Below, in pieces: positions 6,780 through 52,647 of a DNA stretch of 64,000 bases. Source of the stretch: Escherichia phage vB_EcoP_PW8; sequence record PQ362703.1, one strand, 5' to 3'. The notes under the pieces were generated by a model. The model was not told the origin of the DNA, did not search any database, and worked only from the letters and a program-made list of their open reading frames with translations. Positions within the stretch are counted from its first letter, which is position 1. Every line of letters begins with the position of its first letter. Both the position numbers and the translations under genes were made by a program.

Positions 6780-6781
6780 TA

Positions 6782-7042: not shown

Positions 7043-7047
7043 GTAAC

Positions 7048-7062
7048 AGCTGCTCCGCAGCT
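7048..7062 (+). promoter_or_regulatory. conserved hairpin AGCTGC-TCC-GCAGCT, candidate virion-RNAP early promoter (or terminator)
   Basis: 6-bp stem, TCC loop, 34 nt upstream of the RNA polymerase II subunit gene; followed by TTTTGG. Confidence 0.35.
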
Positions 7063-7095
7063 TTTGGTTATTAATCACATTTAGGAGAATAAGCG

Positions 7096-8417: not shown

Positions 8418-8461
8418 TCCATTATGCGAGCCAAGTGGCTCAAGACGCTAAGGAACATAAA

Positions 8462-9679: not shown

Positions 9680-9686
9680 TAAACTA

Positions 9687-9719
9687 GCCTCATTCCTTCG
9701 GGAGTGAGGCCTATTTTTT
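9687..9719 (+). terminator. rho-independent terminator (TTCG tetraloop)
   Basis: GCCTCATTCC-TTCG-GGAGTGAGGC followed by CTATTTTTTG. Confidence 0.7.
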
Positions 9720-9736
9720 GCTTGGAGGTAGCAACT

Positions 9737-9919
9737 ATGCTAATCAATTTTGAAGTAATCTTTCAGCTAATACTGATAGTTTTATCTGTACTGGTTCTGG
9801 CTACGATAATCCGTGCCCACAAATCTAAGTTTGCTTACTGCTACTATGGAGCATACTCACTTGGCTGTTTTGTAATAGCAGGATGGATAGCTTTTGCTAT
9901 CTACTGCGTAAACAACTAA
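9737..9919 (+). CDS. small two-TM membrane protein
   Basis: Track ORF 9704 starts inside the terminator; ATG at 9737 has GGAGGT RBS; hydrophobic. Confidence 0.45.
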   Translation: MLINFEVIFQLILIVLSVLVLATIIRAHKSKFAYCYYGAYSLGCFVIAGWIAFAIYCVNN

Positions 9920-9920
9920 C

Positions 9921-9946
9921 CCTCCTAACGGAGGATTTATTTTTTT
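9921..9946 (+). terminator. rho-independent terminator
   Basis: CCTCC-TAAC-GGAGG followed by ATTTATTTTTTT. Confidence 0.55.
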
Positions 9947-9993
9947 ACATGTCATGTATACTAATCCTGCTATTTACTTATGAGGAAATTGAT

Positions 9994-34943: not shown

Positions 34944-35747
34944 ATGTCATTGTTCAGTAATCTGAAAGAAAAAACCAAAAACGTTGAAGCTGTAAAAGAC
35001 TCCCTGGGTGGTGGTGGCTTCGGTGTAAAAGAGTCCGATATCTACACTGGTACTGTAAAAGTAGCTTACGTAGGTAAAGCTGATTCTGGTGCAGACTGGA
35101 TGCAGTTAATCATTGAAGACCTGAAAAACTCTGATGGAGTACCTGCCGGTGAGTTCCGTGCTCAGGTGTACTTCACTTCTGGTAATGCTAAAGGCAATAA
35201 GCCGACTTATGAGAAGAACGGTAAAGAATACTTCTTGCCTGGTTACACTGTCATTAACGACATGATGCTGATGGCTACTGGTACTGAGCTGCCTGAAGCT
35301 GACTTCGAAGAGAAGATTGTCAAAGTCTATGACTTCGATGCTAAAGCAGAAGTTAATAAGTCTGTCATGGTTCCGGTTGACCTGGTAGGCCAGACTGTTA
35401 CCTTCGCTCTGGAAAAGGTTCTGGAATCCAAGCAGGTTAAAGGTGACAACGGTTACGTTGATTCCGGGGAAACTCGTGAAGTAAACGAGATTCAGAAAGT
35501 GTTTCACTCGGAACTGCTGGTCACAGTCGTCGAGGCTCAGGAAGCAGAGAAGGCTGAGAAAGAACTGACCCCAGAACTGGCTGTATTCTATGCAGCATGG
35601 CTGGAAAAGAACAAAGGCAAGACTCGTGACAAGACCAAGGGTTCTGCTGGTGGTAATGGTAAAGGTGGCTTGCCTCCTAAGCCTGGTGCAGGTACAGGTA
35701 CAGGTACTACTCCTGCTGGTGGTAAATCACTGTTCGGTAAACGCTAA
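34944..35747 (+). CDS. single-stranded DNA-binding protein (N4 gp45-like), Gly-rich C-terminal tail
   Basis: 267 aa (N4 SSB is about 265 aa); position at end of replication module; assignment by size and synteny. Confidence 0.45.
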   Translation: MSLFSNLKEKTKNVEAVKDSLGGGGFGVKESDIYTGTVKVAYVGKADSGADWMQLIIEDLKNSDGVPAGEFRAQVYFTSGNAKGNKPTYEKNGKEYFLPGYTVINDMMLMATGTELPEADFEEKIVKVYDFDAKAEVNKSVMVPVDLVGQTVTFALEKVLESKQVKGDNGYVDSGETREVNEIQKVFHSELLVTVVEAQEAEKAEKELTPELAVFYAAWLEKNKGKTRDKTKGSAGGNGKGGLPPKPGAGTGTGTTPAGGKSLFGKR

Positions 35748-36755: not shown

Positions 36756-36763
36756 TCTGGTAG

Positions 36764-36925
36764 GTGGCTCAGAAGCTGCTGCTATTTGTGGTAGTGTTCG
36801 TAATTCTGATGCTATTGCTTATCAGGATTCTGGACGTGTCGGCTCCATACATAGCATTTATCATCACTGTGCTTATACTTTGGAAACTCAGTGATAAAAA
36901 CGGTGGTGACAAGCCGCCAGAGTAA
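36764..36925 (+). CDS. possible small hydrophobic membrane peptide (53 aa)
   Basis: GTG ORF encoding LLLFVVVFVILMLLLIRIL...; below track cutoff; weak RBS. Confidence 0.25.
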   Translation: MAQKLLLFVVVFVILMLLLIRILDVSAPYIAFIITVLILWKLSDKNGGDKPPE

Positions 36926-37464
36926 CAACAACAACAACCGAACCAGTGGACTTTAATACTCTCCGAAGTCCATTGGTTCAATCTAAACTAAGCGGAAAAG
37001 TTAGCTTTTTCTTGGGTGTAGAACCTGTTGTAGAAAATAAATTATTCCGTAGTGAGTAGTTAATATCGTAAATGATTCTGTTAGAATCCTTTGAGATAGG
37101 AACTCCTATCATAACCTTTCTTAACTTAATCTTTGCCGTATGGCACTGACGCTAGGGGTGGCCCCCCATCCGTCAGGTAGACTATTTTAAGAATGGGTTA
37201 TCTCAGAAAATGTAAAGCAACATTCGGGTTAATCAATGGCCTCTCCCTATAGGGGCCATTTCTGAATCTTAGGCTATATCCCAAAGGTTAGTATCTTTGG
37301 GATAAGGCTTCAGATCCCTTATCAACTAACGCTCATGTTGAGCAAAACATTAACCAATAATGTCGGATAGTTCATTAAGCTATTCATCCAGCATCGAGAT
37401 GTTAGGTCTTACATGCAATATAGGGTATAAAGGGAGGACTCGTCCCCTCCCTCTTATTATAATG

Positions 37465-37534
37465 GTCGGGGTATCACGTAGGCATGTGTAGAAGGTCGCT
37501 ACTTCTCCCGCTGGTTCTAATCCAGCCCCCGACC
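37465..37534 (+). tRNA. tRNA-like element (atypical: short variable loop, weak D stem)
   Basis: 7-bp acceptor GTCGGGG/CCCCGAC, anticodon stem AGAAG/CTTCT with loop GTCGCTA, T arm GCTGG-TTCTAAT-CCAGC. Confidence 0.3.
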
Positions 37535-38322
37535 TACTGACATCCTATCAATGAGTACATTAAGCTAACGTGCGGAGGTTTACACTGTAGCCGGTGTAGG
37601 TGGAGAAGACGGCAGGATAGCTACCTGTGCTTAGTGTACTCTTTGATAGGTTGTGCTATCAAAGTCCAGACGATACCTGAGTGACTTTAAAAACAGATGG
37701 AGCCAGGTGGAATCCCTGGCAATTAATTCAAAGTAGCATTGTACTAATCCATCCCGGAGTTCAAAGGCCAATCATGGAGCAGTGCTACTCTGAATTAGAA
37801 GAATTAAGACGGGTCTGGTGAAGTAGATGGGGTTCGATTCCCTCCGGTAGAGTAATCTACTAGCGTGCTTGGTGCACGAATAAGACTTAATACTGGTGGT
37901 TTGATTCCATCCCCCGTCATCCGAAGTCGCCAGGTACTTATGGCAAACGGGTAGTAACGAACTGGTCATTCGTCAAACGCCCACCTAATTACGAGTCAGC
38001 AAGAACGCCTTCACTTAAACTTAAACAAAAAAGCTTAACGCAATAATTATGTAGGGGTATGTAAGGATTGCGAAGAAGGAGCCAGTTAAAGCCTGGCATG
38101 ACTCACCTAATTGAGGCTGTACTTATGTTCTACAGTAGGTGCACAACACTGGGCTGCTACACCCAGAGGTACAGCCTCACCCTATTACGGGCAATTTAGC
38201 TTAACCTAGTTAAGTAGGTATCATGATTCATTGCTGTAAAATGAGGCTCTTATCAAGCCTCTTCAGACACAGAATCAAGTAAGCTAATGTTGTGGGTATC
38301 TCACAACATGCCCTCCCAATAA

Positions 38323-38398
38323 TACCCGGTAGGCTTAGTGGTAAAGCCCCACTAGTAAACCAGCTAGGACGCAGGTTCGAATCCTGTCCGGGTAACCA
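38323..38398 (+). tRNA. tRNA-like gene with encoded CCA; anticodon arm atypical
   Basis: Acceptor TACCCGG/CCGGGTA, D arm GGCT-TAGTGGTAA-AGCC, T arm GCAGG-TTCGAAT-CCTGT, 3' ACCA; anticodon region folds only as a 4-bp stem with an 8-nt loop. Confidence 0.45.
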
Positions 38399-38403
38399 TT
38401 TAT

Positions 38404-38477
38404 GCCCACTTAGCTTAGACGGGGAAAGCAACCGACTAATAATCGGAAGGTCACTGGTTCAAATCCAGTAGTGGGTA
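38404..38477 (+). tRNA. tRNA gene, apparent anticodon AAU (unusual; assignment uncertain)
   Basis: Acceptor GCCCACT/AGTGGGT, D arm GCTT-AGACGGGGA-AAGC, anticodon stem (A)CCGA/TCGG(A) with loop CTAATAA, T arm ACTGG-TTCAAAT-CCAGT. Confidence 0.5.
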
Positions 38478-38714
38478 CTCATTTAGCAGTAACATAGTCC
38501 TGATTGCATTGCACTCTAAAGACAACACTGGTAAGACAGTCCAGTGGCTGCTATTGTATTGATATTCCCCTCGACGGGAATTTCGCTAGTGAAGGTAACA
38601 CTTAAAAATCCAAACCCACGTCTTACTACTATCGGGCTATCAACCCATGGTCGCTTAACACACTAGTGATAGTAGTTTGACGGACTAGCCTCGTTAGCTG
38701 CGTTAAAGCTACTA

Positions 38715-38744
38715 AGTCCCTCTTCGGAGGGACTTTTTTATTTG
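38715..38744 (+). terminator. rho-independent terminator (TTCG tetraloop)
   Basis: AGTCCCTC-TTCG-GAGGGACT followed by TTTTTTATTT. Confidence 0.7.
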
Positions 38745-38803
38745 AGTATTAATAAACGCAATCATGTTTAAGTACAAACTCAAACCACTCTATGAGGCTA
38801 ATA

Positions 38804-39184
38804 ATGGCAACAGTAAGTAAAGAAGCAATCGAAGCTAAGATTAAGAGCGTTTACTATTTCAATGGTGCTGACGCAGTGAAATCTGCATTCGTTGACCCCT
38901 CTGCACTTCCAGCAGATGATTTGGCTAACCTGGGTCTGACAACCCATTGCATTATCATTCTGGAAAACGACTTCAAAGTGGAAGGTGTATCTGCCTGTGT
39001 TGACCCGGCTATCTATGATGAACAGAAAGGCCGTCAATATGCATATGAAAATGCATTCAATAAGATTTGGGAATTAGAAGGTTACCTGCTACGTCAGGCA
39101 CTGCATGAGAAAGAAGAGACTGCTAAAGCTCTGGCTTCCTTTGCAGAAAACAATACCTGTGACGGTGGTGGTTGTACAATCTGA
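38804..39184 (+). CDS. hypothetical protein
   Basis: Track ORF 38792 trimmed to ATG Met5 with GAGG RBS. Confidence 0.5.
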   Translation: MATVSKEAIEAKIKSVYYFNGADAVKSAFVDPSALPADDLANLGLTTHCIIILENDFKVEGVSACVDPAIYDEQKGRQYAYENAFNKIWELEGYLLRQALHEKEETAKALASFAENNTCDGGGCTI

Positions 39185-39264
39185 TCCAAAGGTGTAAGGT
39201 AGTTTTTACCGAAAGGTACTGAACTACCCGACAAGTAGCAAGGCTCTATAAGCCAAAACAAAAC

Positions 39265-39293
39265 AAGCCCTCACTAGGAGGGCTTTCTCGTTT
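39265..39293 (+). terminator. rho-independent terminator
   Basis: AAGCCCTC-ACTAG-GAGGGCTT followed by TCTCGTTT. Confidence 0.55.
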
Positions 39294-39308
39294 ATATAGG
39301 AAAATAAC

Positions 39309-39542
39309 ATGACACAAGTATCTATTACCTCTGTTGTTCGTGAGGCCATTCTCAACAATACTGTTCGTACATATTCATTCGATGAAATCTCAGAAAAACT
39401 GGGAGTAACTCGTTACATAGCTAAGAAGCTTTACTTCTCATTCCTGTGGTTCCCATCAGAGGAAACATTACGGAAGATTAAAGAGACTGGCAAATTTCCA
39501 AGTGAAGGGCGTAAGCCTAAGATGTGGAGAACACATGACTAA
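39309..39542 (+). CDS. small HTH-like DNA-binding protein
   Basis: 77-aa ORF; SFDEISEKLGVTRYIAKKL helix-turn-helix-like segment. Confidence 0.45.
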   Translation: MTQVSITSVVREAILNNTVRTYSFDEISEKLGVTRYIAKKLYFSFLWFPSEETLRKIKETGKFPSEGRKPKMWRTHD

Positions 39543-39741
39543 ATCATTTGCAGCACACCAACTTCGTGTATTAGATGAACTGGGCGCACTGAATCAAAAA
39601 ATACATGACCTATCCGTATTTATTAATACAAATGAAACATTTACCAAACTGGACCAGTTTGACCAGGCATTACTACGCACACAATTAGATACTATGTCTG
39701 CGTATGCTCGCGTACTTGAATTGAGAATTTCACGCTTCTAA
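39535..39741 (+). CDS. hypothetical protein
   Basis: Track ORF 39502 trimmed to ATG Met12 with GGAG RBS. Confidence 0.45.
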   Translation: MTKSFAAHQLRVLDELGALNQKIHDLSVFINTNETFTKLDQFDQALLRTQLDTMSAYARVLELRISRF

Positions 39742-39746
39742 AGTAA

Positions 39747-39770
39747 AGCCCCTCATTAGAGGGGCTTTTT
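39747..39770. terminator. bidirectional terminator between convergent genes
   Basis: AAGCCCCTC-ATTA-GAGGGGCTT with T-run after it on plus and A-run before it, between the 39535 gene end and the virion RNAP gene end. Confidence 0.7.
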
Positions 39771-39773
39771 CAT

Positions 39774-42700
39774 TTAGTTAGTAAGGTTGAGCCACGGGTT
39801 CAAGGTATGGGCACGTAAGCCTTGTCCGAAACCGAAGGAGTAACCAAGGTTACCCTGTGCAGCAATGCTGAAGATGTTGTCCTGAATAGGCAGACCAACA
39901 TTACCAAACATAGTAGGAGTTGGAGCCAGCATAGCCATAGCAGCATGTACTGGGTTATTACGAATCATGGACACTGCAACTTTTGCAGAACGAATCTTAA
40001 AGTTGTAGAACCACATCAGACCAACACTTTCCATATACCCACGGAATCGACCCGGCAGACGGTCGTAGTTAATAAACTCTTCCGTTACACGTCCCAGTGC
40101 TTCTTCACGAGTCTTACCTTTACGCTGAGTCAGTTCATCATAGATGATTGCTTTAGCAATAAAATCAGAGTACTCAACCGTCTTCTGGATACCCTGGAAG
40201 AGAGCAGTATCCTTAGTGATAAGTGCATAACGACCTGCATTACGTACAGACTTAGGTAACTTATCAGCCAGCTTTTCCATGTATTCGTGAAGTTTACCTT
40301 CAGTAATCAGGATGTCATCGCGACCAATACCAGCATCTGCAATTGAAGAGAACTCACCAGCTTCTAACAGAGGCCAGATACTCAAACGCTTATGGCTATC
40401 CGTAATGGACTGAATCTCTGCTTTCAGCTTACGAATCTGGTTCGGGTTAGTAGCTGCACGTAATTCTGCTTCTGCATCTACCTGACGCAGACGAGATTTC
40501 AGATACTGGTTAATCTCAGCAGTTTTCTGTGGAATGCTCTTAGCAATGTTCTTAACAGGTACACCACGAGCAACCATCTGGTAAAGGTTAGCCAGGAAGT
40601 TAACAGCAGGTACAACTACCGACTTAACTACAATCAGGGTCTTAGCTTCTTTAACTAAGTTCTGAACCAGATTCTCACCACCCATTACGTACTTATAAGC
40701 ACGGTTACCGAATACACCCAGCATAGCTTTCTTAAAGGTATCCAGTGTTTCTGGGGACCAACGAGAATTGCCAGACCAAGCATCACCAACAGAAGCTGCA
40801 CGGTAACCCAGTGCATCATTCAGCATGTCACGACGTACCCATAACTCACCCGGACCAAACAGACTTTCTGCTTTCTGACGAGTTTCACTGTTCATCAGCT
40901 TAAGAGCATCAGCAGTCACTGGGTCCAGTTTAGAACCAAGAAGGTTAACGTACTGGGACTTATTAGAGGCAGACATCTTAAGGTCGTTCTCATACATGCT
41001 ATGCAGGTTCTCAATCAGCATATCATTGAAACGTTGTGCCTTAGCTTCTTCCACCTGACGTCCACGCCATACACCAATTGCACGAGCAAGATGGTTCTCA
41101 CCCTCAATATGCTTCAGCATGTTAGGGTCAATGGATTGCTCATAAGCAACTACATTACCATTGGCATCATATACAGGCAGCAGTGGTTCATTACCACGTT
41201 CACCTCGAGCCAGTGCTTTAGTGATACGGTCTACGGAAGGCTTGTCAGTAATACGACCAGCTACCATGGTCCCCATCGTAAAGCCTGTGCCGAGGTCTAC
41301 ACCACCAGCAGTATTACGGACGTTCTGTAGGATACCTTGTGAGAATGGGGCCTGTGCCTGTACCGGTGCAAAGTAGTAACTACGTGCTGGGCCACGGTTA
41401 GCAGAACTACCCTGATAAGTACCCAGGCGTACATAGGATTTCTCAATCAAATCAGCAAACTGACTATCTTCAGCAACAATCAGGTTAACACCTTGTTTAG
41501 TCTCACTAGGGATATACCCTTTGTACTGGTTCAAGGTTGCACGGCTATCAGACTTGGCTTTAGCCATTTCATCCTTACGCTGACCAACCAGGTAAGAGGT
41601 AGCAAAGTCCATGCCTTCAATTTCAGTCTGAGCCAGTGAAGATAGCATCTCACGGTCAGTCTTACCCATTGCTTCCAGTGCATACAGGGTAATCAGTTTA
41701 TCCAGTTGAGCTACATCTACAACAGAACGTGTAGTCTTACGTTCACCCAGCAATCGAGAAATTGCTGTAGCATTACGCAGCAGGTTATTACCGACTGTAC
41801 CGTTAATCATGTACTGAGCCAGTTGCTTAGATTTACGACTAATCAGGGGCCAGTTACGTCCTGCTTGCTTCTGCAAATCTGCTTCCAGCTTATTCACTTC
41901 ACGATCAACAATCTTCTGGTCAGTCAGTAGGTCACGAATTTCACCTAAAGACATAGTGTCACGTAGAACGGCTAGGTCAGTTTTACCCATACCGGTATGC
42001 ATTGCTTTCCACTCTTCATTAGTCAGTCTACGACTGAACTTAGATGCGATAGCGGTAGGCAAATGCTCACGGAACTGCTGACGGTCAGCTTGTACCTGTG
42101 CGCGTACTGCCTTAATCAAATCGTATACAGAAGCATTGCTCTTAGTACGACCAACTATGTCATTAACCAGGTCGTGGAAAGGTTGCCATACCTTACCCTG
42201 GTTCATTGCAGCCATAACACCCTCGGCTACGATTGAACCATTCTTCTCTGTAGCAATAGCAGCTACCAGTTGTGCAGCATGAGCAGCACCTTTAACCAAT
42301 GGGTTCTTGGTATTAGCTGCAACTTCACGAGCACCTTCTAAAGCACGGGTAGACAATACATCAATAGAATCCACCAGATACTGATTAGCACGGTCAATAG
42401 CATTACCGGTAGGGGTAGCAACAGAATCATAGAAGGACTCTGCATTAAGACTGGTCTGCATAATTGTCTGAGCTAATGCATCCATACCTTCCTGTACGTT
42501 GGTAGCTTTAGTGTCACCTGCTACACGAGCATTCAGACTAGCCATTGCAGCAGTACCGATGTTAGTCAGCATTGCGTCAACAGTATTGCCTGATTTCTTA
42601 TCTGCTTTCATAACAGGAATTTCAGCCAGTACCTTACGTACCTCTTCACTTACCATTGCCAGACCAACAAAGGTAGGCAGTAAGGAAGAACGACCTTGTG

Positions 42701-45700
42701 CATCAAACTCAATGTTGTTAGCACCCATGATGGTATCGAACTTCTGCTGTGCATAGTAACGGTCAGCAGGGTTAGTACTATCCGGGTTAGCCATGAATGA
42801 TTCAACAGTCAGGTTCTTAGTAACATGCGTGTAGTATTCCTGTGCACGAGCCATAGCAGCAGGGTTAACAGCAGCCTCGGTAGCCAGTGCAGCAACAATA
42901 TTGGTAAAGAGACGCTGTTCCTGCATATTCATGGTGAAGCCATGAGCCTGAACATCACGGGTTACTTTAGTTGCATTTACTACTGCATCAGAGAACTTAC
43001 CTTTACGAATTACTTGCTGTACTGGTTCTGAACCAATGTAGTCAGTAATCAGCTTATCAAATGTTTTCCCTAACTCTTCCAGACGGGTATTGTCACCATA
43101 TGCCTTGTTATGGAACAGGGTAGTGTCTTTGGCTACAGCAGCAGTAGGAGCCTGTCCACGCATTACTACAGCAGAGTTAAACAGTAAGCCTGAGAACATA
43201 TCATCTGCATTAGCAGGAGCTTTCTTACGTCCAAATACCAGACGTTTGATTGCTTCATATACAGCCTGAACCATAGTTTTAAGTGCAGTGGTTTTCTTCT
43301 GCTTATTAATAAGTTCACGGTTAGTTAAACCCCAAGCCATGTACTCATTCAGAGCAGCAGCTTTAGCCATCGCCGGTTCAATGAAGCCATTAGACAGGTG
43401 TCCATTAATGGTATTCAGTGCATCTGCATATGCTTCACGTACTGCCGGAGATTCATCCTTAACATCCAGAGCACGGAACTGGTTCATCAAATCTTCAATG
43501 TTCTGAACTGCTTCATTAGGAGTACCTTCATAGTGAGCCAGTACAGATTCAAAAGTAGAAGCGTGTACCAATTCATGAACCAGAGTTTCTAAGGAAGGAG
43601 TAACTAAGTAGATGGTCTTATCTTCAAAGTTAGTCCAGCCGTATGCATTACCTGCTTCAGCAGCTTCAATATCTTCTGGTGCTGGACGAGCAATGTTCTT
43701 CTCAATAGCGTAGGCATCCAGTTGAGAAGGCGTACCGTAAACAACCTTATAGTCTTTAGCAGCAAGGGATTTCTGTATCTCTTTCAATACTGCTTGCTGT
43801 TCAGGAGACATCTCTTTAGCTAGTTTAGCAATGGCAGTATTAGACAGCAGACGTACACCAGACTTCAGTACATGACCAACCAATTCTATTGCTGGTACTT
43901 CTTTCACTGGTTCTGCTTTAGCAGCACGTACTGCATCACGACGCTTGTTTAATTCAGCATCAAACAGTTCGTTCAGCTTAGCTACTTGCTGGTCTACGGT
44001 AAGCCCTTCCAGAGAGATTTTACCGTTGTTCACGTAAGGAGCACCTACGGCAGCCATCTGGTCAACAGTGACCTGTACCTGGTCCATTACCTTGTGACGA
44101 ATATCTACACCCAGAGCAATGTTACGCAGATTACGTTCAATCTGTTCAGCACCAACACGTAACAGGTCATCAGTAGCACCCTCACGCTGGTCATATTCCA
44201 GAGCAGACTTAGCAATAGCCTGTTTAGTTTCATCAGACAGTTTACTGAAGTCTACGTTCTTCATGAACTTAGCGAAGGAGTCATAAACATTCTTGATAGG
44301 GTTTCCTTGCCAAGAAGTATATACAGCCTCATTAGCTTTACGACTTGCATCAGTGATGTCATTGATACCAATGTTCATACCGTCAAAGATTTTCAGGGTA
44401 TTCTTCGGAGCACCCTTCATAGTAGAAAGAGTCTGCATCATCATGCCATCACCAGTACCGATGGTCATAAATGGAATACCTGCAACACCTGCCTGTGAAG
44501 GAGCATAGATGCTCATTGGCACACGCATACGATCATCTAAGTTGGTAGCCAATACTTGGTTAGCAACATCAGTATTCTCACTACCAGCAATGTAGAAAGT
44601 CTGTGAACCAGTCTCAATCATTGGAGCCAGTGGAGCTAAGCTATTCTGGATTTCATTCAGTTCTTTCTGTGTTAAGAAATCACCTTTCTTCCATGTTGGG
44701 TCTTTTTCTTTTTCTGCCAGCTTAGCCTGTACTGCTTGTTGAAACATATCCTGCAATACCAGTGATTGAATCTGAGTAGCCTTCTGCAAATTCTCAGTAG
44801 AGTACATCAGACCTTCGCCAACAGTATTTCGGATACCAGTACGCATTGGCTCAACGAATAAGTGAAGCATGTTCTCTTGTAAGTTCTTAAGAGCATTACC
44901 AGATACGGTAAACTTCTGGGGATCTAGCTTACCAGTCAAAGCACCATCTACTTGTTGAATAGATAACTCACCTTTACGCATAACTGGAACATTACCAGTC
45001 AGTGCTTCCATAGAAGTAAGGAAAGTATCCAGCATAGCCTGAGCAGCAGCCTCAGATGCAGCCTCCTTACCAAACATTGCCATAGCTGGGGAAATGCTAG
45101 GGTCAGCAGCACGGGCTTGCAGAACGTCACTGAAGCGTTCGTAGATGGTATCAGTAATTGCACTTACCATTTTGCCTGCAATACCACGAGCACCGGAACC
45201 ATAGATGGTAATGGTCAGTGGGTTTTTAGCTATACCACGTTTCAGGTCCAGAGTACCATCTTCATTCAGATTAAAGTCTTTAATGAACAGGTCCATTAAC
45301 TTCTGGAGATGCTTCATCTGGTTCGTAACAGGAACGTTGTTACGGTAAGTATTACGTAGCTCATTCAGTGCCTGTTGCAGACCATTAGTGGATGCTTCAT
45401 ACAAGTCAACACTATCCTCATGCGAATGATGCTCATTCATAGTCTTGCCAGCTTTACCGAAGAACAAGCCACCCTTAGCAGTATTCTTAATCCAGTCTGG
45501 GGTGAACTTACCACCAGTCATTAATACCATTGCGTTGATTGGACCGTTGGTTACACCATCAGCTTCAACGTACAGCGGAGTATTAAAATTGGTACGGTCA
45601 TCACTGTTAAGATAACGGGCATATTCCATAAGAGCCATGAGAGCTACGAATGATTTATCACTACCCAGAGAAGTCTTCAGAATATCCACTGCATTGGTTG

Positions 45701-48700
45701 GTAAGTGTCCAGACTTATCAAACTCAACCATCATATCAACAGCAGGTTTCAGTTTGCCTTCCAGGGCTTTAGTCAGCTCATCTGACATAACTTCACGAGA
45801 CATTTTATGAACTTTGATGCCTAATGCTTGAGCCAGACCTAACTGGAAGTCAGAGAAGGTTTGGCTGTTTTCATTACTCAAGTCGATAGTAGAGAAGGTT
45901 GGTAGGATTGCTTCACGTACCAGCTTGCTGGACTGTGGATTGTTCTTACCAAGCATCTGCATACGACCTACACGGGTCATGTTGTAACCATAGTGAATAG
46001 GTGTATCCAGTCCATTCTCTTGTTCCTTAATCTGATTGATTACACCAAACAAGGAATCATATGCCATAGAAACGGATAGGTTTTTACCTTCCAGAGATTT
46101 AGCAGTATTCACATTCAGCAATTCTGGGTTAAGAGCACCAGCACCCATCAGTTCAAGAATGTTGTCACGACCCAATGCCTCATAGAAATTAACCATCGGC
46201 ATATGTACACGGAACTCAGTAGCCTGTTCAGCTTTAAGAGCAGCTTTCTGTTCCGGGGTATTGCGGACAGCCGGGTTACGTAACTGAGTTTGAGCCACAG
46301 AAGGAATATCATCACCCAGATACAGTTTCTCTTCTGGTTCTAAAAGGACAGCTTCCTCAATAGCAGTGGGGAATTTATTAATGGCATCATTATCATCCAG
46401 CTTCTCAATGGTATACAGACCAATAGTCTTATTAGATTCTGGGTCAATCTCAGATACATCCAGCATGGACTCTTTAACTTCACCCATCTCAATAAGGGAA
46501 GACAGAATCTCTGTAGCCATTGCCATTGGGATACCCTTGGTATAGCCCAGTGGTGCATTAGGATTACGATTCAAACCCCAATAGGATTCAATCTTTTGAG
46601 CCAGTGAGTTAGTAGCCTCAACCAGAGTCTGAGCATTCTCGAAGTCAGCCAGAATACCTTCTGGTAACAGAGATGCTTCTACTCCAGTAATAGCAGCTAC
46701 GTCTTTCATATCTTTAACAGCAGCATTCTGTGTAGCAGTTAGTCGCCATTGCAAACCAGCAAGTACAGCAGTCTCTAGCAACTGGTCATTGAACTTAAAG
46801 GTGTCACCATCTTTCTCTACGATGTTAAGTAATTTACCACCTACCCAACGGTTAGCCTCAGTTCCTTCTGCAAAACGTTTACCAACATTCTTGTTAGCAA
46901 GGAACTTAGCCAGACGGTCAGACAGTGTAGTCTTCAGAGTTTCACCAAAAGCAAACAAATCCTGGTAACGCTTAATCACATCACCTGTAAGAGCGTTATT
47001 TTCTTTTTGAGTAAATGCTTCAAAACGAGCAGCAGAAGATAATGCTTTCTTAACATCAGTCAAAGGAGATTCAGAACCAATGGTACGGGACTTAGGTTCC
47101 TCTGGCAGAGAAAATGCTTTAAGGAACTGGTTCGGTGTTTTGTCATTGTTATAGACATGGAACACTGCTTCCATTTCTGTTTTAGTTTCAGCTATTTCCT
47201 GAGTGTTATCCTCATTAGTGAGGGTAACATCCTGTTTTTCAGACTGGTTCTCAGGTTCTTTTACAGCCTGTGGTTTAGACTCTTTAATAGTAGGTTCTGT
47301 TTTAACAGCTTCACTAACAGAGGGTTTAGTCTGTACAGTAGGGGTAACTGGTTCCTGTTTTGTAACAGGAGTATCATCAACCTGATTCACTGGTTCATTA
47401 GTCTGTTGGGATTGAGCAGCGTCAAGATTGCCCTGACGGAACTCTTTAACTACCTGAGCAGCAGGTTTGTTCAGACGTGAATCCAATGGGATAACTTTCA
47501 CATGAGAAACATTAAGCTCCGGGTAAGCCGTAGCAAGTGCGTTAGCAATATCAGCTACGGTCTTGGCTTCCAGTCCTACTTGCTGGGCAAACTTAACCGA
47601 CTTGGTATCATACGGATTGACACCGAGGCCAGTACGACTACGTACCCATTCACGCGAGGAAGTAAGAGCCTGATAATGGACAGACTTATTCTTATCCGCA
47701 TTCCCCGAAATCAGATGCTCATTCAACGCTCCGACCTTATTCTGCATGTGCTGGGCGAACTTCATAAAGTCGTCGAGATAAGCGGAAGCCAAATCGAAGT
47801 TACCAGAGTTGTACGCAGAACGAATGCGTTTAGCATGTTGCAACGCAGAGTACTGGCCTTCATTAGAACGAGATTCGTCGGTTTTAATTTGTTTACTAAC
47901 AATGTCTTGAGGACGTAAGCCTAGTTCTTCTGCTTTAGCGTCAAACTCTCGTGCTCCTTGCAATAAAGCAGCAGCAGATTGCAGGGCAGCACGCTGACGA
48001 TTCCCAAGTGTAATCTTACCTTCACTTGCATGTTTCAGAACCATGTTCACTGAATCTGCATCCAGTACTTCTGGAGACATGTCAGCAGCCATGGCAATGC
48101 TGTTTGCCTGAGCTTGATTAGCTTCTTCAGTAGCTTTCAGTTTACCTGCTTCAGCCTGTTCCTGAATCATGGAATGAATAGCACGGAATGCACGGAGTAC
48201 CTTCGGTGTATTCTGAACGTTAGCCATCAGACCGGAGAACTGGTCAACAATATTAGCAGCAGGAGAACCTTGTTCCAGATTAGCTAATGCACCAGGGTCA
48301 CGGTTAATGAAGCTATCCATAGACATGATGTTGTCATACATCTGGATTGCAGCTTCCATTTGAACGTTAGGGTCTTCAGCAGTATTAACCAGGTCAGCCA
48401 TCTTCTGAATAGCTTCAACACGGTTAGTGGAACCAGAAACAGCTTCACGGATTGCTGGACTAGCTTGCTCCAGTTCTACTGGGTCAAACTTCATTACCTG
48501 AGTTAAATCAGCAGCGTACTGGGTAGCAGCAGCTTTCTCTTCTGGAGTAATATCCATTGCATCTACTGCTTCCTGTACAGTTGCTTGTGCTTGTTCTGCT
48601 TGAGCAGTAGCTTCCTGTGCAGCAGCATTAACTGTAGCGTCTGATACAGGAGATGCTTGTTCATTACGCTTAGCAACTTCTTCACCACGCTGAACCAGAA

Positions 48701-50132
48701 TGTTAGTAATAGGGGAGGCAGCTTTTGCTAATACATTACCCGCCAGAGAAGCACCAGCCAGGGTAGTACGTACAGCAGGACCAACGGCAGCACCAGCAGC
48801 CTTAACAGTTGCACCAGGAGCTTGAGCAACTCCAGCAGAACCAAAGCCATACAATGCACCAAGACCAGTTTGTTCACCCACACCTTTAAGCAAATCACGC
48901 TTAGCATCTACATTACCCTGAATTGCCTTGTTCTGTGCAAACTGACTTGTACCAGACTGGATACCTTCTTCCACAGTTTCACGGAGCAAGTTAGAACCAG
49001 CACCAGCCAGAGAACCTACCTTAAGTGGGTTAAGTTCAAACTTAGATACCAGTGGGCCAGTAAGAGCAGCAACCGGAGCAGTTAGGCCAGCAGCAGTGAT
49101 ACCCGTTTCAGATGCAGTCTGACGACGAGCTTCTTCAGGAGTTAAGCCGTCTTTAATGTGTTGTTGGTATACAGGAGATTTAGCAGCCAGTTCACTGAAT
49201 GGCATTTCCATAATTTCATTAGCAGTCTGTTGGTATGCACCACCAGCTTCCATACCACCAATTGCTATAGCAGGTGCAGCAATACGCCCGGTAGCTAATG
49301 CAGTACGTGCAGGACGCGAACCTAACTCAGCAGCTAAGGTAATACCCTTAACAGCTTTATCACCACCTACCATTACTTTACCGAGTGCAGATACACCACG
49401 GATTAATGGACCACCAGTAAACAGAGAACCAACACCTTCAGCAATACCATCTGTAGCAGCCATGTCATTGGATAAGGTGTTAGCAACAGAATCATAAGCA
49501 TCACGACCAATACGAGACAGAGAAGCAACGAGTTCACTTTCCCCTTTAGCAATATCCTGCTTATAGAGTTTCTCATTTTCCTGTGCAGAGATTACATTCT
49601 GGTTCTGTACTACATTACGACGAGCATTCAATGCATCAGACTGTAGGTTGTGTACACCTTTATTCAACCAGTCAAGACTGGAAGCAATGGATGCCCCGGC
49701 ATTATCATTGACCAAGCCTGTGCCAAGAGCAGCAATGCCCCCAAGGGTATTAGCAACACCAAGACCAACACCAGAAAGGGTATCGCCAAATGCTTCTGCG
49801 TTAGTACGTTGTTTAGATAAGTCCTGGCGTACAGCATCAGCAGCATTAGCTCGACTATTAAGAATCTGTAGACCTTGCTCATTACCATACTTATTAATGA
49901 TTTCTAATGGGGAGGCCTGAGTGAAATCTGCCTGAAGTGAACCTGGTTCAAATGCACCAGCACCTAAGTTACCTGCACGACCTGCCTGTAATTGGTAAGC
50001 GTTCTGTGGGGTTAATTGGAAAGGGTTTTGCCCTTGTTCAGCTTGCTTCCGGGAGGTTGCAGTAGAGACATCGACTTGCTTAGCATTAGTGATGCTGTCT
50101 GCGAAACCTGCCAGACGGTCAAATGTTGACAT
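39774..50132 (-). CDS. giant virion-encapsidated RNA polymerase (N4 gp50-like vRNAP)
   Basis: Uninterrupted 3452-aa ORF (track 3458 aa from TTG; ATG at 50132 has AGGAAA RBS); a ~3500-aa virion RNAP is the hallmark of N4-like phages; located at the end of the structural gene block. Confidence 0.85.
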   Translation of the reverse strand: MSTFDRLAGFADSITNAKQVDVSTATSRKQAEQGQNPFQLTPQNAYQLQAGRAGNLGAGAFEPGSLQADFTQASPLEIINKYGNEQGLQILNSRANAADAVRQDLSKQRTNAEAFGDTLSGVGLGVANTLGGIAALGTGLVNDNAGASIASSLDWLNKGVHNLQSDALNARRNVVQNQNVISAQENEKLYKQDIAKGESELVASLSRIGRDAYDSVANTLSNDMAATDGIAEGVGSLFTGGPLIRGVSALGKVMVGGDKAVKGITLAAELGSRPARTALATGRIAAPAIAIGGMEAGGAYQQTANEIMEMPFSELAAKSPVYQQHIKDGLTPEEARRQTASETGITAAGLTAPVAALTGPLVSKFELNPLKVGSLAGAGSNLLRETVEEGIQSGTSQFAQNKAIQGNVDAKRDLLKGVGEQTGLGALYGFGSAGVAQAPGATVKAAGAAVGPAVRTTLAGASLAGNVLAKAASPITNILVQRGEEVAKRNEQASPVSDATVNAAAQEATAQAEQAQATVQEAVDAMDITPEEKAAATQYAADLTQVMKFDPVELEQASPAIREAVSGSTNRVEAIQKMADLVNTAEDPNVQMEAAIQMYDNIMSMDSFINRDPGALANLEQGSPAANIVDQFSGLMANVQNTPKVLRAFRAIHSMIQEQAEAGKLKATEEANQAQANSIAMAADMSPEVLDADSVNMVLKHASEGKITLGNRQRAALQSAAALLQGAREFDAKAEELGLRPQDIVSKQIKTDESRSNEGQYSALQHAKRIRSAYNSGNFDLASAYLDDFMKFAQHMQNKVGALNEHLISGNADKNKSVHYQALTSSREWVRSRTGLGVNPYDTKSVKFAQQVGLEAKTVADIANALATAYPELNVSHVKVIPLDSRLNKPAAQVVKEFRQGNLDAAQSQQTNEPVNQVDDTPVTKQEPVTPTVQTKPSVSEAVKTEPTIKESKPQAVKEPENQSEKQDVTLTNEDNTQEIAETKTEMEAVFHVYNNDKTPNQFLKAFSLPEEPKSRTIGSESPLTDVKKALSSAARFEAFTQKENNALTGDVIKRYQDLFAFGETLKTTLSDRLAKFLANKNVGKRFAEGTEANRWVGGKLLNIVEKDGDTFKFNDQLLETAVLAGLQWRLTATQNAAVKDMKDVAAITGVEASLLPEGILADFENAQTLVEATNSLAQKIESYWGLNRNPNAPLGYTKGIPMAMATEILSSLIEMGEVKESMLDVSEIDPESNKTIGLYTIEKLDDNDAINKFPTAIEEAVLLEPEEKLYLGDDIPSVAQTQLRNPAVRNTPEQKAALKAEQATEFRVHMPMVNFYEALGRDNILELMGAGALNPELLNVNTAKSLEGKNLSVSMAYDSLFGVINQIKEQENGLDTPIHYGYNMTRVGRMQMLGKNNPQSSKLVREAILPTFSTIDLSNENSQTFSDFQLGLAQALGIKVHKMSREVMSDELTKALEGKLKPAVDMMVEFDKSGHLPTNAVDILKTSLGSDKSFVALMALMEYARYLNSDDRTNFNTPLYVEADGVTNGPINAMVLMTGGKFTPDWIKNTAKGGLFFGKAGKTMNEHHSHEDSVDLYEASTNGLQQALNELRNTYRNNVPVTNQMKHLQKLMDLFIKDFNLNEDGTLDLKRGIAKNPLTITIYGSGARGIAGKMVSAITDTIYERFSDVLQARAADPSISPAMAMFGKEAASEAAAQAMLDTFLTSMEALTGNVPVMRKGELSIQQVDGALTGKLDPQKFTVSGNALKNLQENMLHLFVEPMRTGIRNTVGEGLMYSTENLQKATQIQSLVLQDMFQQAVQAKLAEKEKDPTWKKGDFLTQKELNEIQNSLAPLAPMIETGSQTFYIAGSENTDVANQVLATNLDDRMRVPMSIYAPSQAGVAGIPFMTIGTGDGMMMQTLSTMKGAPKNTLKIFDGMNIGINDITDASRKANEAVYTSWQGNPIKNVYDSFAKFMKNVDFSKLSDETKQAIAKSALEYDQREGATDDLLRVGAEQIERNLRNIALGVDIRHKVMDQVQVTVDQMAAVGAPYVNNGKISLEGLTVDQQVAKLNELFDAELNKRRDAVRAAKAEPVKEVPAIELVGHVLKSGVRLLSNTAIAKLAKEMSPEQQAVLKEIQKSLAAKDYKVVYGTPSQLDAYAIEKNIARPAPEDIEAAEAGNAYGWTNFEDKTIYLVTPSLETLVHELVHASTFESVLAHYEGTPNEAVQNIEDLMNQFRALDVKDESPAVREAYADALNTINGHLSNGFIEPAMAKAAALNEYMAWGLTNRELINKQKKTTALKTMVQAVYEAIKRLVFGRKKAPANADDMFSGLLFNSAVVMRGQAPTAAVAKDTTLFHNKAYGDNTRLEELGKTFDKLITDYIGSEPVQQVIRKGKFSDAVVNATKVTRDVQAHGFTMNMQEQRLFTNIVAALATEAAVNPAAMARAQEYYTHVTKNLTVESFMANPDSTNPADRYYAQQKFDTIMGANNIEFDAQGRSSLLPTFVGLAMVSEEVRKVLAEIPVMKADKKSGNTVDAMLTNIGTAAMASLNARVAGDTKATNVQEGMDALAQTIMQTSLNAESFYDSVATPTGNAIDRANQYLVDSIDVLSTRALEGAREVAANTKNPLVKGAAHAAQLVAAIATEKNGSIVAEGVMAAMNQGKVWQPFHDLVNDIVGRTKSNASVYDLIKAVRAQVQADRQQFREHLPTAIASKFSRRLTNEEWKAMHTGMGKTDLAVLRDTMSLGEIRDLLTDQKIVDREVNKLEADLQKQAGRNWPLISRKSKQLAQYMINGTVGNNLLRNATAISRLLGERKTTRSVVDVAQLDKLITLYALEAMGKTDREMLSSLAQTEIEGMDFATSYLVGQRKDEMAKAKSDSRATLNQYKGYIPSETKQGVNLIVAEDSQFADLIEKSYVRLGTYQGSSANRGPARSYYFAPVQAQAPFSQGILQNVRNTAGGVDLGTGFTMGTMVAGRITDKPSVDRITKALARGERGNEPLLPVYDANGNVVAYEQSIDPNMLKHIEGENHLARAIGVWRGRQVEEAKAQRFNDMLIENLHSMYENDLKMSASNKSQYVNLLGSKLDPVTADALKLMNSETRQKAESLFGPGELWVRRDMLNDALGYRAASVGDAWSGNSRWSPETLDTFKKAMLGVFGNRAYKYVMGGENLVQNLVKEAKTLIVVKSVVVPAVNFLANLYQMVARGVPVKNIAKSIPQKTAEINQYLKSRLRQVDAEAELRAATNPNQIRKLKAEIQSITDSHKRLSIWPLLEAGEFSSIADAGIGRDDILITEGKLHEYMEKLADKLPKSVRNAGRYALITKDTALFQGIQKTVEYSDFIAKAIIYDELTQRKGKTREEALGRVTEEFINYDRLPGRFRGYMESVGLMWFYNFKIRSAKVAVSMIRNNPVHAAMAMLAPTPTMFGNVGLPIQDNIFSIAAQGNLGYSFGFGQGLRAHTLNPWLNLTN

Positions 50133-50196
50133 AGCATGTTTCCTGTTCAAACTTATATCGTATATAGGAAGCTTACTCTACAGTAAGCCAGTGTAA

Positions 50197-50220
50197 GAAA
50201 AAAGCCCCGAAGGGCTTTTG
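50197..50220 (-). terminator. rho-independent terminator on minus strand
   Basis: On the minus strand AAAAGCCC-TTCG-GGGCTTTT followed by TTCTTAC. Confidence 0.55.
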
Positions 50221-50226
50221 TTAGTA

Positions 50227-52191
50227 TTACCGATTTTGTCTTGGTTGCATATACTCAGGCAAACCTTGTGCCTGACGTAGGTAACGTGCAGCACGTTCTT
50301 CATCTTCCTTGGCTCGTGCTCTGTCCACACTAGCCTGTGACCGGAAACCTCTTGGAGCCAAGTTAGATGGGTCTGCTTGAACTTGAGCTTGTGCAGCTTG
50401 TAGCATTGCAGCAGCTTTAGTAACAGCTTCCTGACGAGCGGGCAACAATGCAGTAAGACCTGTCTGTCCGGTGTTAATCTTGTTCTGGGTATTTGTCAGT
50501 GCAGCTACAGCAGCATCATAAGCAGTCTGTGCTGCCTGAATATTCTGCATAGCCTGTGCACGTCCAAGATTACGTACACTGCCTTCTAGTGGTTCACCTC
50601 GTTGTACGCCCTCAATTAACTGGTCTACCAGACGGTCATTAAGACGCATACCATTACCGGCTTCGTTAGTAATGAATGGGTTAACTGCATCAATAGCACG
50701 ACTAATATAACCCTCTGGAACACCTGTCTGTGCACGTTGCATAACAGCAGCAGCCATAGCTGGAGACATATTCCCACGTTGAGAAATATCAGTTAGTCGG
50801 TTAAGTACCCAGTTACGGTCAGCACCCTTAAAGTCACCATCCAGCAGACGATTAGCAATCTCACCTACTGGAGTATTATCGGTGACAGTACCCAGGAAAT
50901 CGGTATTAAGACTACCGGTATTATCCTGCATAGAGCGAGTACCAATCATACCTTGAGCCAAGGTAGATACTGCCTGATTTCCTTGATTATTCTGAATCAG
51001 AGCGAATGGGTCAGCTCCTACCTCAGCTTGAGCAATAACAGGCTTAATCTGTTCCCAAGTCATATCCTTATAAGCACCTGGAGTTGAGTTAGGTAAAGCA
51101 GCCCAGGTATCTTTAAGGTTACCGTTCTTACGAGCCTCAAAAATGGCCTTACCAATCTTCTCCTGGTTCTCAGGGGAAAGGGGCTGGTTCTGCCAATCTG
51201 AACCAAGAACTTTGGGAGCAAAGTCTTGTAAAGTAGCCTGGTTAATCTGGAATGCACCAACAGGGGAAGCACCCTGATTAGTCTTCATGACATCCTGGTG
51301 TTTAATTACATCACCAATACTCATTTGAGTAATAGGAGTAGATGTACCGGCAAACTGATAAGTAACATCATAAGGAGAACCCTGGCGAGTACCAGCAGTA
51401 CCAGGAGCAGATGTAGCACCGACATTATTGCCGTAAACACCCGGGTATGCACGGGCTAGTATTTCCTGTAAACGTGCCTGTGCAACAGGGGACAGATTTT
51501 TACTATATGCTTCTGCCAACAGACGAGCATCGTTGGGGTTCTCAGCGCCACGGGTAATTTGTGACATTACACCCATAGCTGCTTGACTATCCGCATCATT
51601 ACGTTGAGCCACACCCAAATCAAAACGGTTCTGTGCTTGGTTAATAGCAGCACCACCTTGTCCTTGGAGACTACTCAACAATTCCAGTTGTTGGTCAGCA
51701 GGAAGTGCAGATAATGCATCACGGGTTTGACCTAATGCAGTATTAATACGGTTCTGGTCACCAGACTGATAAGCCTCAGACAGTAATCGAATAGCTGGTG
51801 AAGCATTATCTAGTGCAGAGTTAACATCCTTTAAGCGACCGAAGGTATAAGCATTATAGTCGTTGGTCCCCTGTTGACCTTGTTGAGTCAGAAGAGTACC
51901 TGCTCGCTCATCCAGATTCTGAAGAGTACGCTGACTTACCAATGAAGGGTCAACTCCCTGAAACAATGCACCAGATGCCAGAGCATTACGATACTCAGTA
52001 GGGTCTTGATACTGCATAGCATTCATCATGACGGCATTGCCAGCCTCCTGCTTGGCAGCGTTCTGGAAATTACCCAGTGCATCACTTAAGCCGGAGGTGG
52101 CGTTACCAATCATGTTTCCAAATGTGCGAATGTTGTCACCAACTCCAGAGAAGTTAGGTGCATCAACATTACGCCATGTTATCTGACTCAT
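50227..52191 (-). CDS. virion structural protein (N4 gp51-like position), Gln/Ala-rich
   Basis: 654-aa ORF immediately upstream of the vRNAP gene. Confidence 0.5.
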   Translation of the reverse strand: MSQITWRNVDAPNFSGVGDNIRTFGNMIGNATSGLSDALGNFQNAAKQEAGNAVMMNAMQYQDPTEYRNALASGALFQGVDPSLVSQRTLQNLDERAGTLLTQQGQQGTNDYNAYTFGRLKDVNSALDNASPAIRLLSEAYQSGDQNRINTALGQTRDALSALPADQQLELLSSLQGQGGAAINQAQNRFDLGVAQRNDADSQAAMGVMSQITRGAENPNDARLLAEAYSKNLSPVAQARLQEILARAYPGVYGNNVGATSAPGTAGTRQGSPYDVTYQFAGTSTPITQMSIGDVIKHQDVMKTNQGASPVGAFQINQATLQDFAPKVLGSDWQNQPLSPENQEKIGKAIFEARKNGNLKDTWAALPNSTPGAYKDMTWEQIKPVIAQAEVGADPFALIQNNQGNQAVSTLAQGMIGTRSMQDNTGSLNTDFLGTVTDNTPVGEIANRLLDGDFKGADRNWVLNRLTDISQRGNMSPAMAAAVMQRAQTGVPEGYISRAIDAVNPFITNEAGNGMRLNDRLVDQLIEGVQRGEPLEGSVRNLGRAQAMQNIQAAQTAYDAAVAALTNTQNKINTGQTGLTALLPARQEAVTKAAAMLQAAQAQVQADPSNLAPRGFRSQASVDRARAKEDEERAARYLRQAQGLPEYMQPRQNR

Positions 52192-52203
52192 GATGGATTC
52201 CTA

Positions 52204-52647
52204 TTAACGAGTTAGCTTATTAGCTGCAATGTAAGCATCAGCAGTAGATTGGTCACGGTTTTCTGCTGTAGCACGACTACGAGCACGGTCTTCCAGTGCA
52301 GTGTTATAAGACTTAATCTGGTTATTCAGATTAGTGTTAGTAACACTCTTAGTAAAGTTCAACTGGTCTTTAGCTAACTTATTGGCTTGGAAACCACTAT
52401 AGATATTAGCCAATGAACCAAGTGCACCCAGTCCTAATTGGAAGGTAGGTACGTTCATACCTAACTGACTAGCCGAGCCAGACATGAAAGTATTGGGAGC
52501 AGATGTACCAAAATTCGTACTCATACCAATAGCTGCACCTGGGTTGTAGTTCATAGCTGGGGTATTAAAGTTCTGATTGTTATTAGACATCCAGGACATA
52601 GCAGCTGGCTGTGGGATTTGGTTGCCTGTTAAGAATGATAAATCCAT
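52204..52647 (-). CDS. virion structural protein (N4 gp52-like position)
   Basis: 147-aa ORF with AGGAGAA RBS. Confidence 0.5.
   Translation of the reverse strand: MDLSFLTGNQIPQPAAMSWMSNNNQNFNTPAMNYNPGAAIGMSTNFGTSAPNTFMSGSASQLGMNVPTFQLGLGALGSLANIYSGFQANKLAKDQLNFTKSVTNTNLNNQIKSYNTALEDRARSRATAENRDQSTADAYIAANKLTR

Follow-up and report, generated by a model that had tools for sequence, protein, structure and literature searches.

A giant virion RNA polymerase gene of the N4 gp50 type and its candidate hairpin promoters in a Gamaleyavirus coliphage

The 10.4-kb open reading frame on the minus strand at 39774–50132 of the window, by which we mean the entire 64,000-nucleotide stretch of Escherichia phage vB_EcoP_PW8 DNA (PQ362703.1) analyzed here, almost certainly encodes the virion-encapsidated RNA polymerase (vRNAP) of an N4-like coliphage of the genus Gamaleyavirus, orthologous to N4 gp50, and nothing in the sequence contradicts this reading. 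The main value of the identification lies in annotation: the window is identified as an N4-like phage (Schitoviridae, genus Gamaleyavirus), and the presence of a vRNAP explains both the three early hairpins and the missing host-type promoters before the early genes. The enzyme, its promoters, the domain structure, and the HExxH module are already known from N4 and its relatives, and no new biology is claimed.

Gene boundaries

The stop-free minus-strand frame extends in its longest form from 39774 to 50150, with a TTG start and 3458 aa. The ATG at 50132, preceded by the Shine-Dalgarno-like sequence AGGAAA, yields exactly 3452 aa plus a stop codon (39774–39776), and since the resulting N-terminus, MSTFDRLAGFADS, agrees with the corresponding N-terminus of N4 gp50, MSVFDRLAGFADS, we take 50132 to be the real start. 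A preliminary description had reported a 10.4-kb ORF of 3452 aa without naming a strand; the ORF is confirmed, lies on the minus strand, and has precisely this length in its ATG form. An open frame of 3,450 codons in DNA of 43–46% GC cannot have arisen by chance, and a giant single ORF of this size, without stops, falls in the range of ~3,300–3,700 aa that characterizes N4-type vRNAPs. We considered an intein, an intron, a frameshift, or a gene fusion within the ORF and rejected them, the alignment with the N4 and Bp4 proteins being continuous except for small indels and the linker described below.

Homology to N4 gp50

In a phmmer comparison with PDB sequences, the protein aligns end to end (query residues 1–3451) with residues 1–3499 of the 3500-aa N4 vRNAP chain (11GP, 9PNQ, and 9PNR), and the stretch aa 1000–2071 is covered by the crystal structures of mini-vRNAP (2PO4, 3C2P, and 3Q0A). 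Four Pfam matches, all of them N4-vRNAP-specific, fall between aa 1294 and 2027 with E-values of 2e-100 to 2e-26: vRNAP_dom_2 (aa 1294–1409), vRNAP_plug (aa 1426–1507), N4_RNAP_helical (aa 1585–1801, E = 2e-100), and vRNAP_dom (aa 1883–2027); the models PF21867, PF21624, PF21894, and PF21769 all score far over cut-off in the central region. In a three-protein alignment of the vRNAPs from N4 (NC_008720), Bp4 (NC_024142), and the window, identity to N4 gp50 is 68% overall (N-terminal domain, 61%; polymerase domain, 72%; C-terminal domain, 70%), the polymerase domain being the best-conserved part, and identity to the Bp4 vRNAP is 96%. A look-up in a collection of 15 billion proteins did not return the exact protein sequence; the allele is new only in the sense of 4–6% sequence divergence, as both the gene and the phage genus are well known.

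The end-to-end alignment with N4 gp50, the four Pfam domains, the mini-vRNAP structures, and the catalytic residues detailed below thus bear out the original suggestion that the ORF encodes a giant virion RNAP. An RNAP-like domain, the absence of which from the central region had been named as evidence against this suggestion, is present there, as judged by the Pfam domains at aa 1294–2027 and the alignments to 2PO4, 3C2P, and 3Q0A. The proposed detection by T7-like profiles fell short: on the central 1071 aa, the generic model PF00940 reaches 16.4 bits (E = 0.0041) against a gathering threshold of 22 bits, and its alignment is confined to motif A. Because the generic T7-like profile stays sub-threshold, the RNAP assignment rests on the N4-specific Pfam models and the PDB chains. 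The N4 mini-vRNAP is a highly diverged T7-like enzyme, the fold of which has been established by crystallography (PMC4496689), and the sub-threshold PF00940 score agrees with this published description. The T7-like relationship of the window vRNAP is supported through its homology to the N4 mini-vRNAP.

Domain organization and conserved residues

As in N4-type vRNAPs, homologous N- and C-terminal domains surround a polymerase, and an HExxH module is present. The N-terminal domain (NTD; aa 1–901, minus-strand nt 47430–50132; N4 aa 1–906) contains hydrophobic Gly/Ala-rich stretches at aa 118–142 and 344–363; for the NTD of N4, a role in association with the membrane and in injecting the genome has been proposed (PMC13434306, PMC13492108). 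It is followed by a low-complexity linker rich in T, E, Q, V, P, and K, delimited by alignment and composition (aa 902–986, minus-strand nt 47175–47429; N4 aa 907–1006), and by the single-subunit RNA polymerase domain or "mini-vRNAP", delimited by Pfam, PDB, and a residue check (aa 987–2070, minus-strand nt 43923–47174). The remainder forms the C-terminal domain (CTD; aa 2071–3452, minus-strand nt 39777–43922), which in N4 packs against the polymerase and is autoinhibitory (PMC13434306, PMC13492108).

The length difference from the Bp4 vRNAP (3570 aa) lies entirely in the NTD–polymerase linker, where an insert of ~106 aa, not of low complexity, is found in Bp4, PD205, nithesis, and others. This insert is absent from the window vRNAP and from IME11-type phages. 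The linker of the window vRNAP is short, and its first half is nearer to that of N4 than to that of Bp4.

The polymerase motifs, with coordinates verified by translation, are found at aa 1386–1390 (TxxGR), D1525 (motif A), K1636 and Y1644 (motif B), and D1917 (motif C), and the key catalytic positions R1390, D1525, K1636, Y1644, and D1917 stand in local contexts identical to those of N4. When the catalytic and promoter-reading residues named for the N4 mini-vRNAP (PMC4496689) are followed in mini-vRNAP numbering, R424 (TxxGR), K437, R440, E557, D559, K670, Y678, and D951 are all kept, each with its local context unchanged, as are eight of the nine promoter contacts: K114, R119, W129, K268, K849, K850, D901, and R904. 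The exception is K267 in the β-intercalating hairpin, which is N in the window vRNAP and likewise in Bp4. The residues reading −8G to −11G do not differ from their N4 counterparts.

Early promoters

A scan for perfect hairpins with a 3-nt loop returned three that combine a TCC loop with the heptamer GCTCCGC, all on the plus strand and intergenic. The P1 ortholog (3396–3414) comprises the hairpin ACATGC-TCC-GCATGT (3396–3410) and a predicted +1/+2 GG at 3414–3415, upstream of the gp1 homolog (3453–3776); the P2 ortholog (3885–3903) comprises AGACGC-TCC-GCGTCT (3885–3899) and a predicted GG at 3903–3904, upstream of the gp2 homolog (3911–4390); and the P3 ortholog (7048–7066) comprises AGCTGC-TCC-GCAGCT (7048–7062) and a predicted GG at 7066–7067, upstream of the gene for the small subunit of the phage polymerase RNAPII (7096–7911). 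The vRNAP promoters of N4 carry a GC-rich template-strand heptamer, GCGGAGC, centered at −11 (PMC4496689), and this is the complement of GCTCCGC. In all three hairpins a GG lies 11–12 nt downstream of the loop center, a position that matches the two-GTP initiation in N4, and folding of the template-strand 27-mers gives the expected hairpin in every case (z ~ −2.5). The left-end early genes are thereby preceded by cognate hairpins of the N4 type (5–7-bp stem, 3-nt loop, heptamer at −11).

Since their flanks align with the N4 sites, we regard the three hairpins as orthologs of N4 P1, P2, and P3, which have been mapped experimentally (PMC4496689). The flanks of the P1 ortholog, ACACGTTAC...TATGGACATGT, match N4 nt 80–116; the flank of the P2 ortholog, CTTTAAAAGA, matches N4 nt 547–556; and the P3 ortholog with its flanks is nearly identical to N4 nt 4536–4576. 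The N4 hairpins themselves are GTTGC-TTC-GCAAC (nt 90–102), AAGAAGC-TCC-GCTTCTT (nt 557–573), and AAGCTGC-TCC-GCAGCTT (nt 4546–4562). In Klebsiella phage KP8 the hairpin of the P2 ortholog is present and labeled "early promoter", and so is the P1 site in the same record. The P1 stem is GTTGC/GCAAC in N4, KP8, and G7C versus CATGC/GCATG in the window and Moo19, and the P2 stem is AAGAAGC/GCTTCTT in N4 versus AGACGC/GCGTCT in the window, KP8, and Moo19. Across these five phages the outer stem pairs thus change in a compensatory manner on both sides, with the heptamer fixed. The agreement with mapped N4 promoters, flanks included, upholds the initial proposal that the TCC-loop hairpins are promoters of the vRNAP.

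From 3300 to 10000, the coding strand contains no sigma-70-like site; the four sites detected in all lie on the minus strand, versus 18.3 ± 4.1 expected. The further proposal that the early genes need no host-type promoters is consistent with this, and applies to the early genes only: the N4 middle genes use the phage RNAPII and the late genes the host polymerase (PMC4496689). Homologs of the RNAPII subunits gp15 and gp16 are present in the window.

Genomic context and lineage

The vRNAP gene is the last of a minus-strand block running from 63715 to 39774, and as the order and sizes of the genes in this block match N4 gp63 to gp50, the preliminary description was right to place it at the end of the structural block. 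As in N4, it lies just downstream of gp51 and gp52 in the leftward late block. The gp51 homolog (50227–52191, minus strand; 654 aa) matches phrog_6126, a virion structural protein (E = 0), and the gp52 homolog (52204–52647, minus strand; 147 aa) matches phrog_2646 (E = 2e-50); both agree with N4 in position and size. In N4, gp51 is an ejection protein of the outer-membrane complex and gp52 an ejection protein of the periplasmic tunnel, and the two are released with the vRNAP (PMC13434306). A G+C-rich hairpin with a T-run (AAAAGCCCTTCGGGGCTTTTTT; 50200–50221, minus strand) separates the stop codon of gp51 from the start of the vRNAP gene, and occurs with identical sequence at the same place in N4. 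At the other end, a terminator-like hairpin of 10 pairs (39745–39768, no strand assigned) lies between the vRNAP gene and a convergent plus-strand ORF (39502–39741).

The RNAPII genes (7096–9679, plus strand), the predicted downstream targets of vRNAP transcription, comprise the gp15 homolog (7096–7911) and the gp16 homolog (8435–9679); they match phrog_2166 "N4-like RNA polymerase" (E = 2e-116) and phrog_2051 (E = 2e-175), and the gp16 homolog also matches PF00940 (E = 1e-14). An extra 168-aa ORF lies between the two. With the genes for SSB (34944–35747), gp53 (52661–55315), capsid (56939–58141), and portal (59756–62026) likewise located, the gene order is colinear with N4 and Bp4 for gp51/gp52, RNAPII, SSB, capsid, and portal.

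The window represents 64 kb of a ~72-kb genome, and the lineage comparison covers the vRNAP gene and the first 25 kb. By megablast, the vRNAP gene matches 85 phage records, the best with 94% identity over 100% of the gene; the best relatives are Escherichia phages PD205, nithesis, HK2, Bp4, ECBP1, IME11, and St11Ph5, together with records under the name Gamaleyavirus, and many of these carry the annotation "virion RNA polymerase". Coverage of the gene is 100% at 91–94% identity for Bp4, IME11, St11Ph5, ECBP1, and AN24P2, and the first 25 kb show 82–90% coverage at 90–92% identity, with Shigella phage pSb-1 and IME11 at ~92%. Bp4 is classified as Schitoviridae; Enquatrovirinae; Gamaleyavirus. 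The preliminary description had taken the gene to fix an N4-like lineage, and the high nucleotide identity and colinearity with members of the genus narrow this to Schitoviridae, Enquatrovirinae, Gamaleyavirus.

The N4 left terminus (TGGTGGGGCTACACCCC...) aligns at position ~3312 of the window, where the records of many relatives also start, which indicates that the window is circularly permuted. As judged from these alignments, the physical left end of the genome likely lies near 3312. Positions 1–3311 are the right end of the genome, with a gp69-like ORF (250–939, minus strand) alongside small plus-strand ORFs.

A zincin-like sub-domain in the CTD

A zincin-like HExxH module has already been described for N4 (PMC5512222, PMC13434306), and the N4 structures solved to date include this domain. 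The corresponding CTD sub-domain of the window vRNAP, C1 (43149–43880, minus strand), carries HELVH at aa 2186–2190 (nt 43563–43577) and, 73 residues downstream, the glutamate E2263 within NEYMAW (nt 43332–43349). Across 12 vRNAP fragments taken from distant Schitoviridae genera, the H, E, H, and A residues and the downstream E never vary. A prior fragment search had given only two short matches, and tblastn against phage records supplied ten distant vRNAP fragments. A Pfam scan of the 12 C1 fragments gave no significant match, SprT-like (0.043) and Aspzincin_M35 (0.14) being hit by one member each. A profile built from the C1 alignment finds chain G of PDB 9SFN (E = 2.4e-11, over both motifs), which is a 1337-aa "internal virion protein", and tblastn identifies this chain as gp37 of LUZ19/phiKMV-like phages. 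A literature search for the PDB code 9SFN returned nothing relevant.

The invariant HExxH and Glu, common to LUZ19/phiKMV gp37, hint that C1 might be an active metallopeptidase during or after ejection, cutting a "beads-on-a-string" protein or a host target, although we consider this rather unlikely. If true, one ejected-peptidase module would be the ancestor of both the vRNAP and the large ejection proteins found in unrelated short-tailed phages. A peptidase prediction for the zincin-like domain of the vRNAP was published by Iyer et al. in 2017, and beyond it only the strict invariance and the similarity in sequence to an ejectosome protein of solved structure are new.

Proposed mechanism

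By analogy with N4 (PMC4496689, PMC13434306, PMC13492108), a few copies of the vRNAP (about four per virion in N4) would be packaged in the capsid and would leave through the tail alongside the ejection proteins gp51 and gp52, with the NTD possibly serving membrane association and DNA entry. Host gyrase would extrude the template-strand hairpins at P1, P2, and P3 near the left genome end, and host SSB would help to present them, again as in N4. The central T7-like single-subunit domain would bind the extruded hairpins, the CTD keeping the enzyme inactive until promoter binding if the autoinhibition of N4 applies here, and transcripts would begin with GTP at a point 11 nt downstream of the loop center. 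In this way the early genes, including gp1, gp2, and those for the RNAPII subunits (gp15 and gp16), would be transcribed without host polymerase, and early transcription by the vRNAP may, as in N4, help to draw in the genome.

Alternative explanations

The giant protein could have nothing but a structural or ejection role, comparable to T7 gp16 and other large internal virion proteins, its polymerase module being degenerate and inactive. The vRNAP does take the place of the largest ejection protein, with its gene downstream of gp51/gp52, and C1 has a homologous domain in gp37, the internal virion protein of LUZ19; but the catalytic residues are all intact (both metal-binding aspartates, the K and Y of motif B, and the R of TxxGR), the promoter-recognition residues are intact save for K267N, and the polymerase, at 72% identity to N4, is conserved better than any other part. 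The conserved cognate promoters also speak against an inactive polymerase, and we consider this explanation highly improbable. We assign the same very low probability to the view that the TCC-loop hairpins are terminators or other regulatory stem-loops, their link to the vRNAP gene being coincidental. A simple terminator scan flags 7048–7062 (plus strand) and 3899–3885 (minus strand) as terminator-like, and the bare heptamer GCTCCGC is not unusual, with three occurrences on both strands against 2.4 expected. The full motif (a stem of at least 6 pairs, the heptamer, and the GG), however, also occurs three times, in every case on the coding strand just before early genes, whereas simulated 64-kb sequences contain it 0.0005 times on average (2000 simulations). 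The hairpin flanks align with the mapped N4 P1–P3 (PMC4496689), the stems are merely 6 bp with 3-nt loops, and the vRNAP residues reading −8G to −11G are shared with N4.

Less probable still is an origin of the window from a defective prophage or from faulty contig assembly, in which case the gene would stand outside a working virion. Compared with the physical ends of related genomes, the window is circularly permuted, and the exact vRNAP protein is absent from the public collection searched; yet permutation is usual in assembled genomes with terminal repeats, and complete genomes of cultured Gamaleyavirus phages are colinear with the window at 91–94% identity. Those genes for replication, RNAPII, capsid, portal, and lysis that were checked are intact, and there is no bacterial flanking DNA.

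Comparison with known systems

The window vRNAP resembles N4 gp50 (3500 aa; 2PO4, 3C2P, 3Q0A, 9PNR, and 11GP) in its succession of NTD, low-complexity linker, T7-like polymerase, and CTD with HExxH, in its identical catalytic residues and, bar K267N, promoter contacts, in its place after gp51/gp52 in the late block, and in the three hairpin promoters before gp1, gp2, and gp15. It differs in being 48 aa shorter and in having N for K267; the P1 loop is TCC rather than the TTC of N4, the P1 and P2 stems differ in a compensatory manner, and the neighboring gp49 (DUF2829) of N4 is replaced in the window by two small ORFs. The other Gamaleyavirus vRNAPs (Bp4, G7C, IME11, ECBP1, St11Ph5, PD205, nithesis, and Shigella pSb-1) share 91–94% nucleotide identity over the whole gene and the same genome organization.

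With T7-like RNAPs (PF00940) the enzyme would share the right-hand fold and the motifs TxxGR/DxxGR, A, B, and C, as established for the N4 mini-vRNAP by crystal structures, whereas it differs from them in reading a single-stranded DNA hairpin instead of a duplex promoter and in being embedded in a 3452-aa virion protein. LUZ19/phiKMV-like gp37 (9SFN chain G) has the zincin-like HExxHAAT and the downstream E..AWGL found in C1, but is a 1337-aa protein with a lysozyme/transglycosylase annotation and without a polymerase module, and belongs to a different phage family, with Autographiviridae-type genomes of ~43 kb. LUZ19 gp37 and the vRNAP are, however, alike in that each is the largest ejected protein of a short-tailed phage.

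Virion RNA polymerase domain organization

We analyzed the region that joins the N-terminal domain to the polymerase domain of the virion RNA polymerase (vRNAP; window 47175-47429, residues 902-986), and this linker takes two forms among the Gamaleyavirus vRNAPs. The window vRNAP and those of IME11-type phages carry a short, low-complexity, N4-like linker; in Bp4, PD205 and nithesis the linker holds an additional segment of ~106 residues, which is not of low complexity and looks like a folded insert.

In the C-terminal domain, a zincin-like HExxH module spans residues 2085-2328 (window 43149-43880), within which His2186, Glu2187, His2190, Ala2191 and Glu2263 are invariant among 12 distant Schitoviridae. 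A profile built on this module hits chain G of PDB 9SFN (E 2.4e-11), which in LUZ19/phiKMV-like phages is the large ejectosome protein gp37. The match provides a link, at the level of sequence, between the vRNAP and a protein in the position of T7 gp16.

Transcription signals and surroundings of the vRNAP gene

Between the stop of gp51, an ejection-protein gene, and the vRNAP start lies a hairpin with a T-run, AAAAGCCCTTCGGGGCTTTTTT (50200-50221, minus strand), which is identical in N4 and is followed downstream by a conserved GATATAAGTTTG. This hairpin may serve as an attenuator that reduces read-through into vRNAP, a low-copy gene. Compared with shuffled sequence, matches to sigma-70-like promoters are strongly depleted in both 3300-10000 (4 vs 18.3 ± 4.1) and 39000-52400 (7 vs 23.5 ± 4.8), and terminator-like hairpins are enriched (13 vs 3.5, and 20 vs 9.3, respectively). 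At the predicted +1 position, orthologs of P2, the second TCC-loop hairpin early promoter, have G in the window, N4, KP8 and Moo19, whereas the G7C hairpin AACGC-TCC-GCGTT (G7C 500-520, after gp1) has C.

Genome ends and gene content relative to N4

The homolog of the left genome terminus of N4 starts at ~3312 in the window, which is also the record start for many relatives; together, these observations indicate that the window is circularly permuted, and that its first 3311 nucleotides (1-3311) are the right genome end. This segment contains a gp69-like ORF (250-939, minus strand) and small plus-strand ORFs (1110-3251).

A stretch of ~2 kb (36760-38790) has no ORF longer than 70 residues and resembles the gp47-gp48 gap of N4. 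ARAGORN calls tRNA-Ala(cgc) at 37464-37535, which finds no support from Rfam, and tRNA-Ile(aat) at 38404-38478, where Rfam agrees (38404-38477); Rfam places a second tRNA at 38323-38395.

In N4 and Bp4, gp49 (DUF2829) adjoins the vRNAP stop, whereas the window has two small ORFs there instead (39309-39542, phrog_9565; 39502-39741, Pfam crAss001_48, E 2e-16), preceded by a terminator-like hairpin (39265-39285). Both ORFs and the hairpin lie within 39224-39741.

Finally, the genes for the two subunits of the phage RNA polymerase RNAPII adjoin in N4, but are separated in the window by an ORF of 168 residues (7911-8417). The ORF in the same place in Shigella phage pSb-1 is annotated as endonuclease VII, which suggests that the 168-residue ORF is a putative mobile nuclease insertion.
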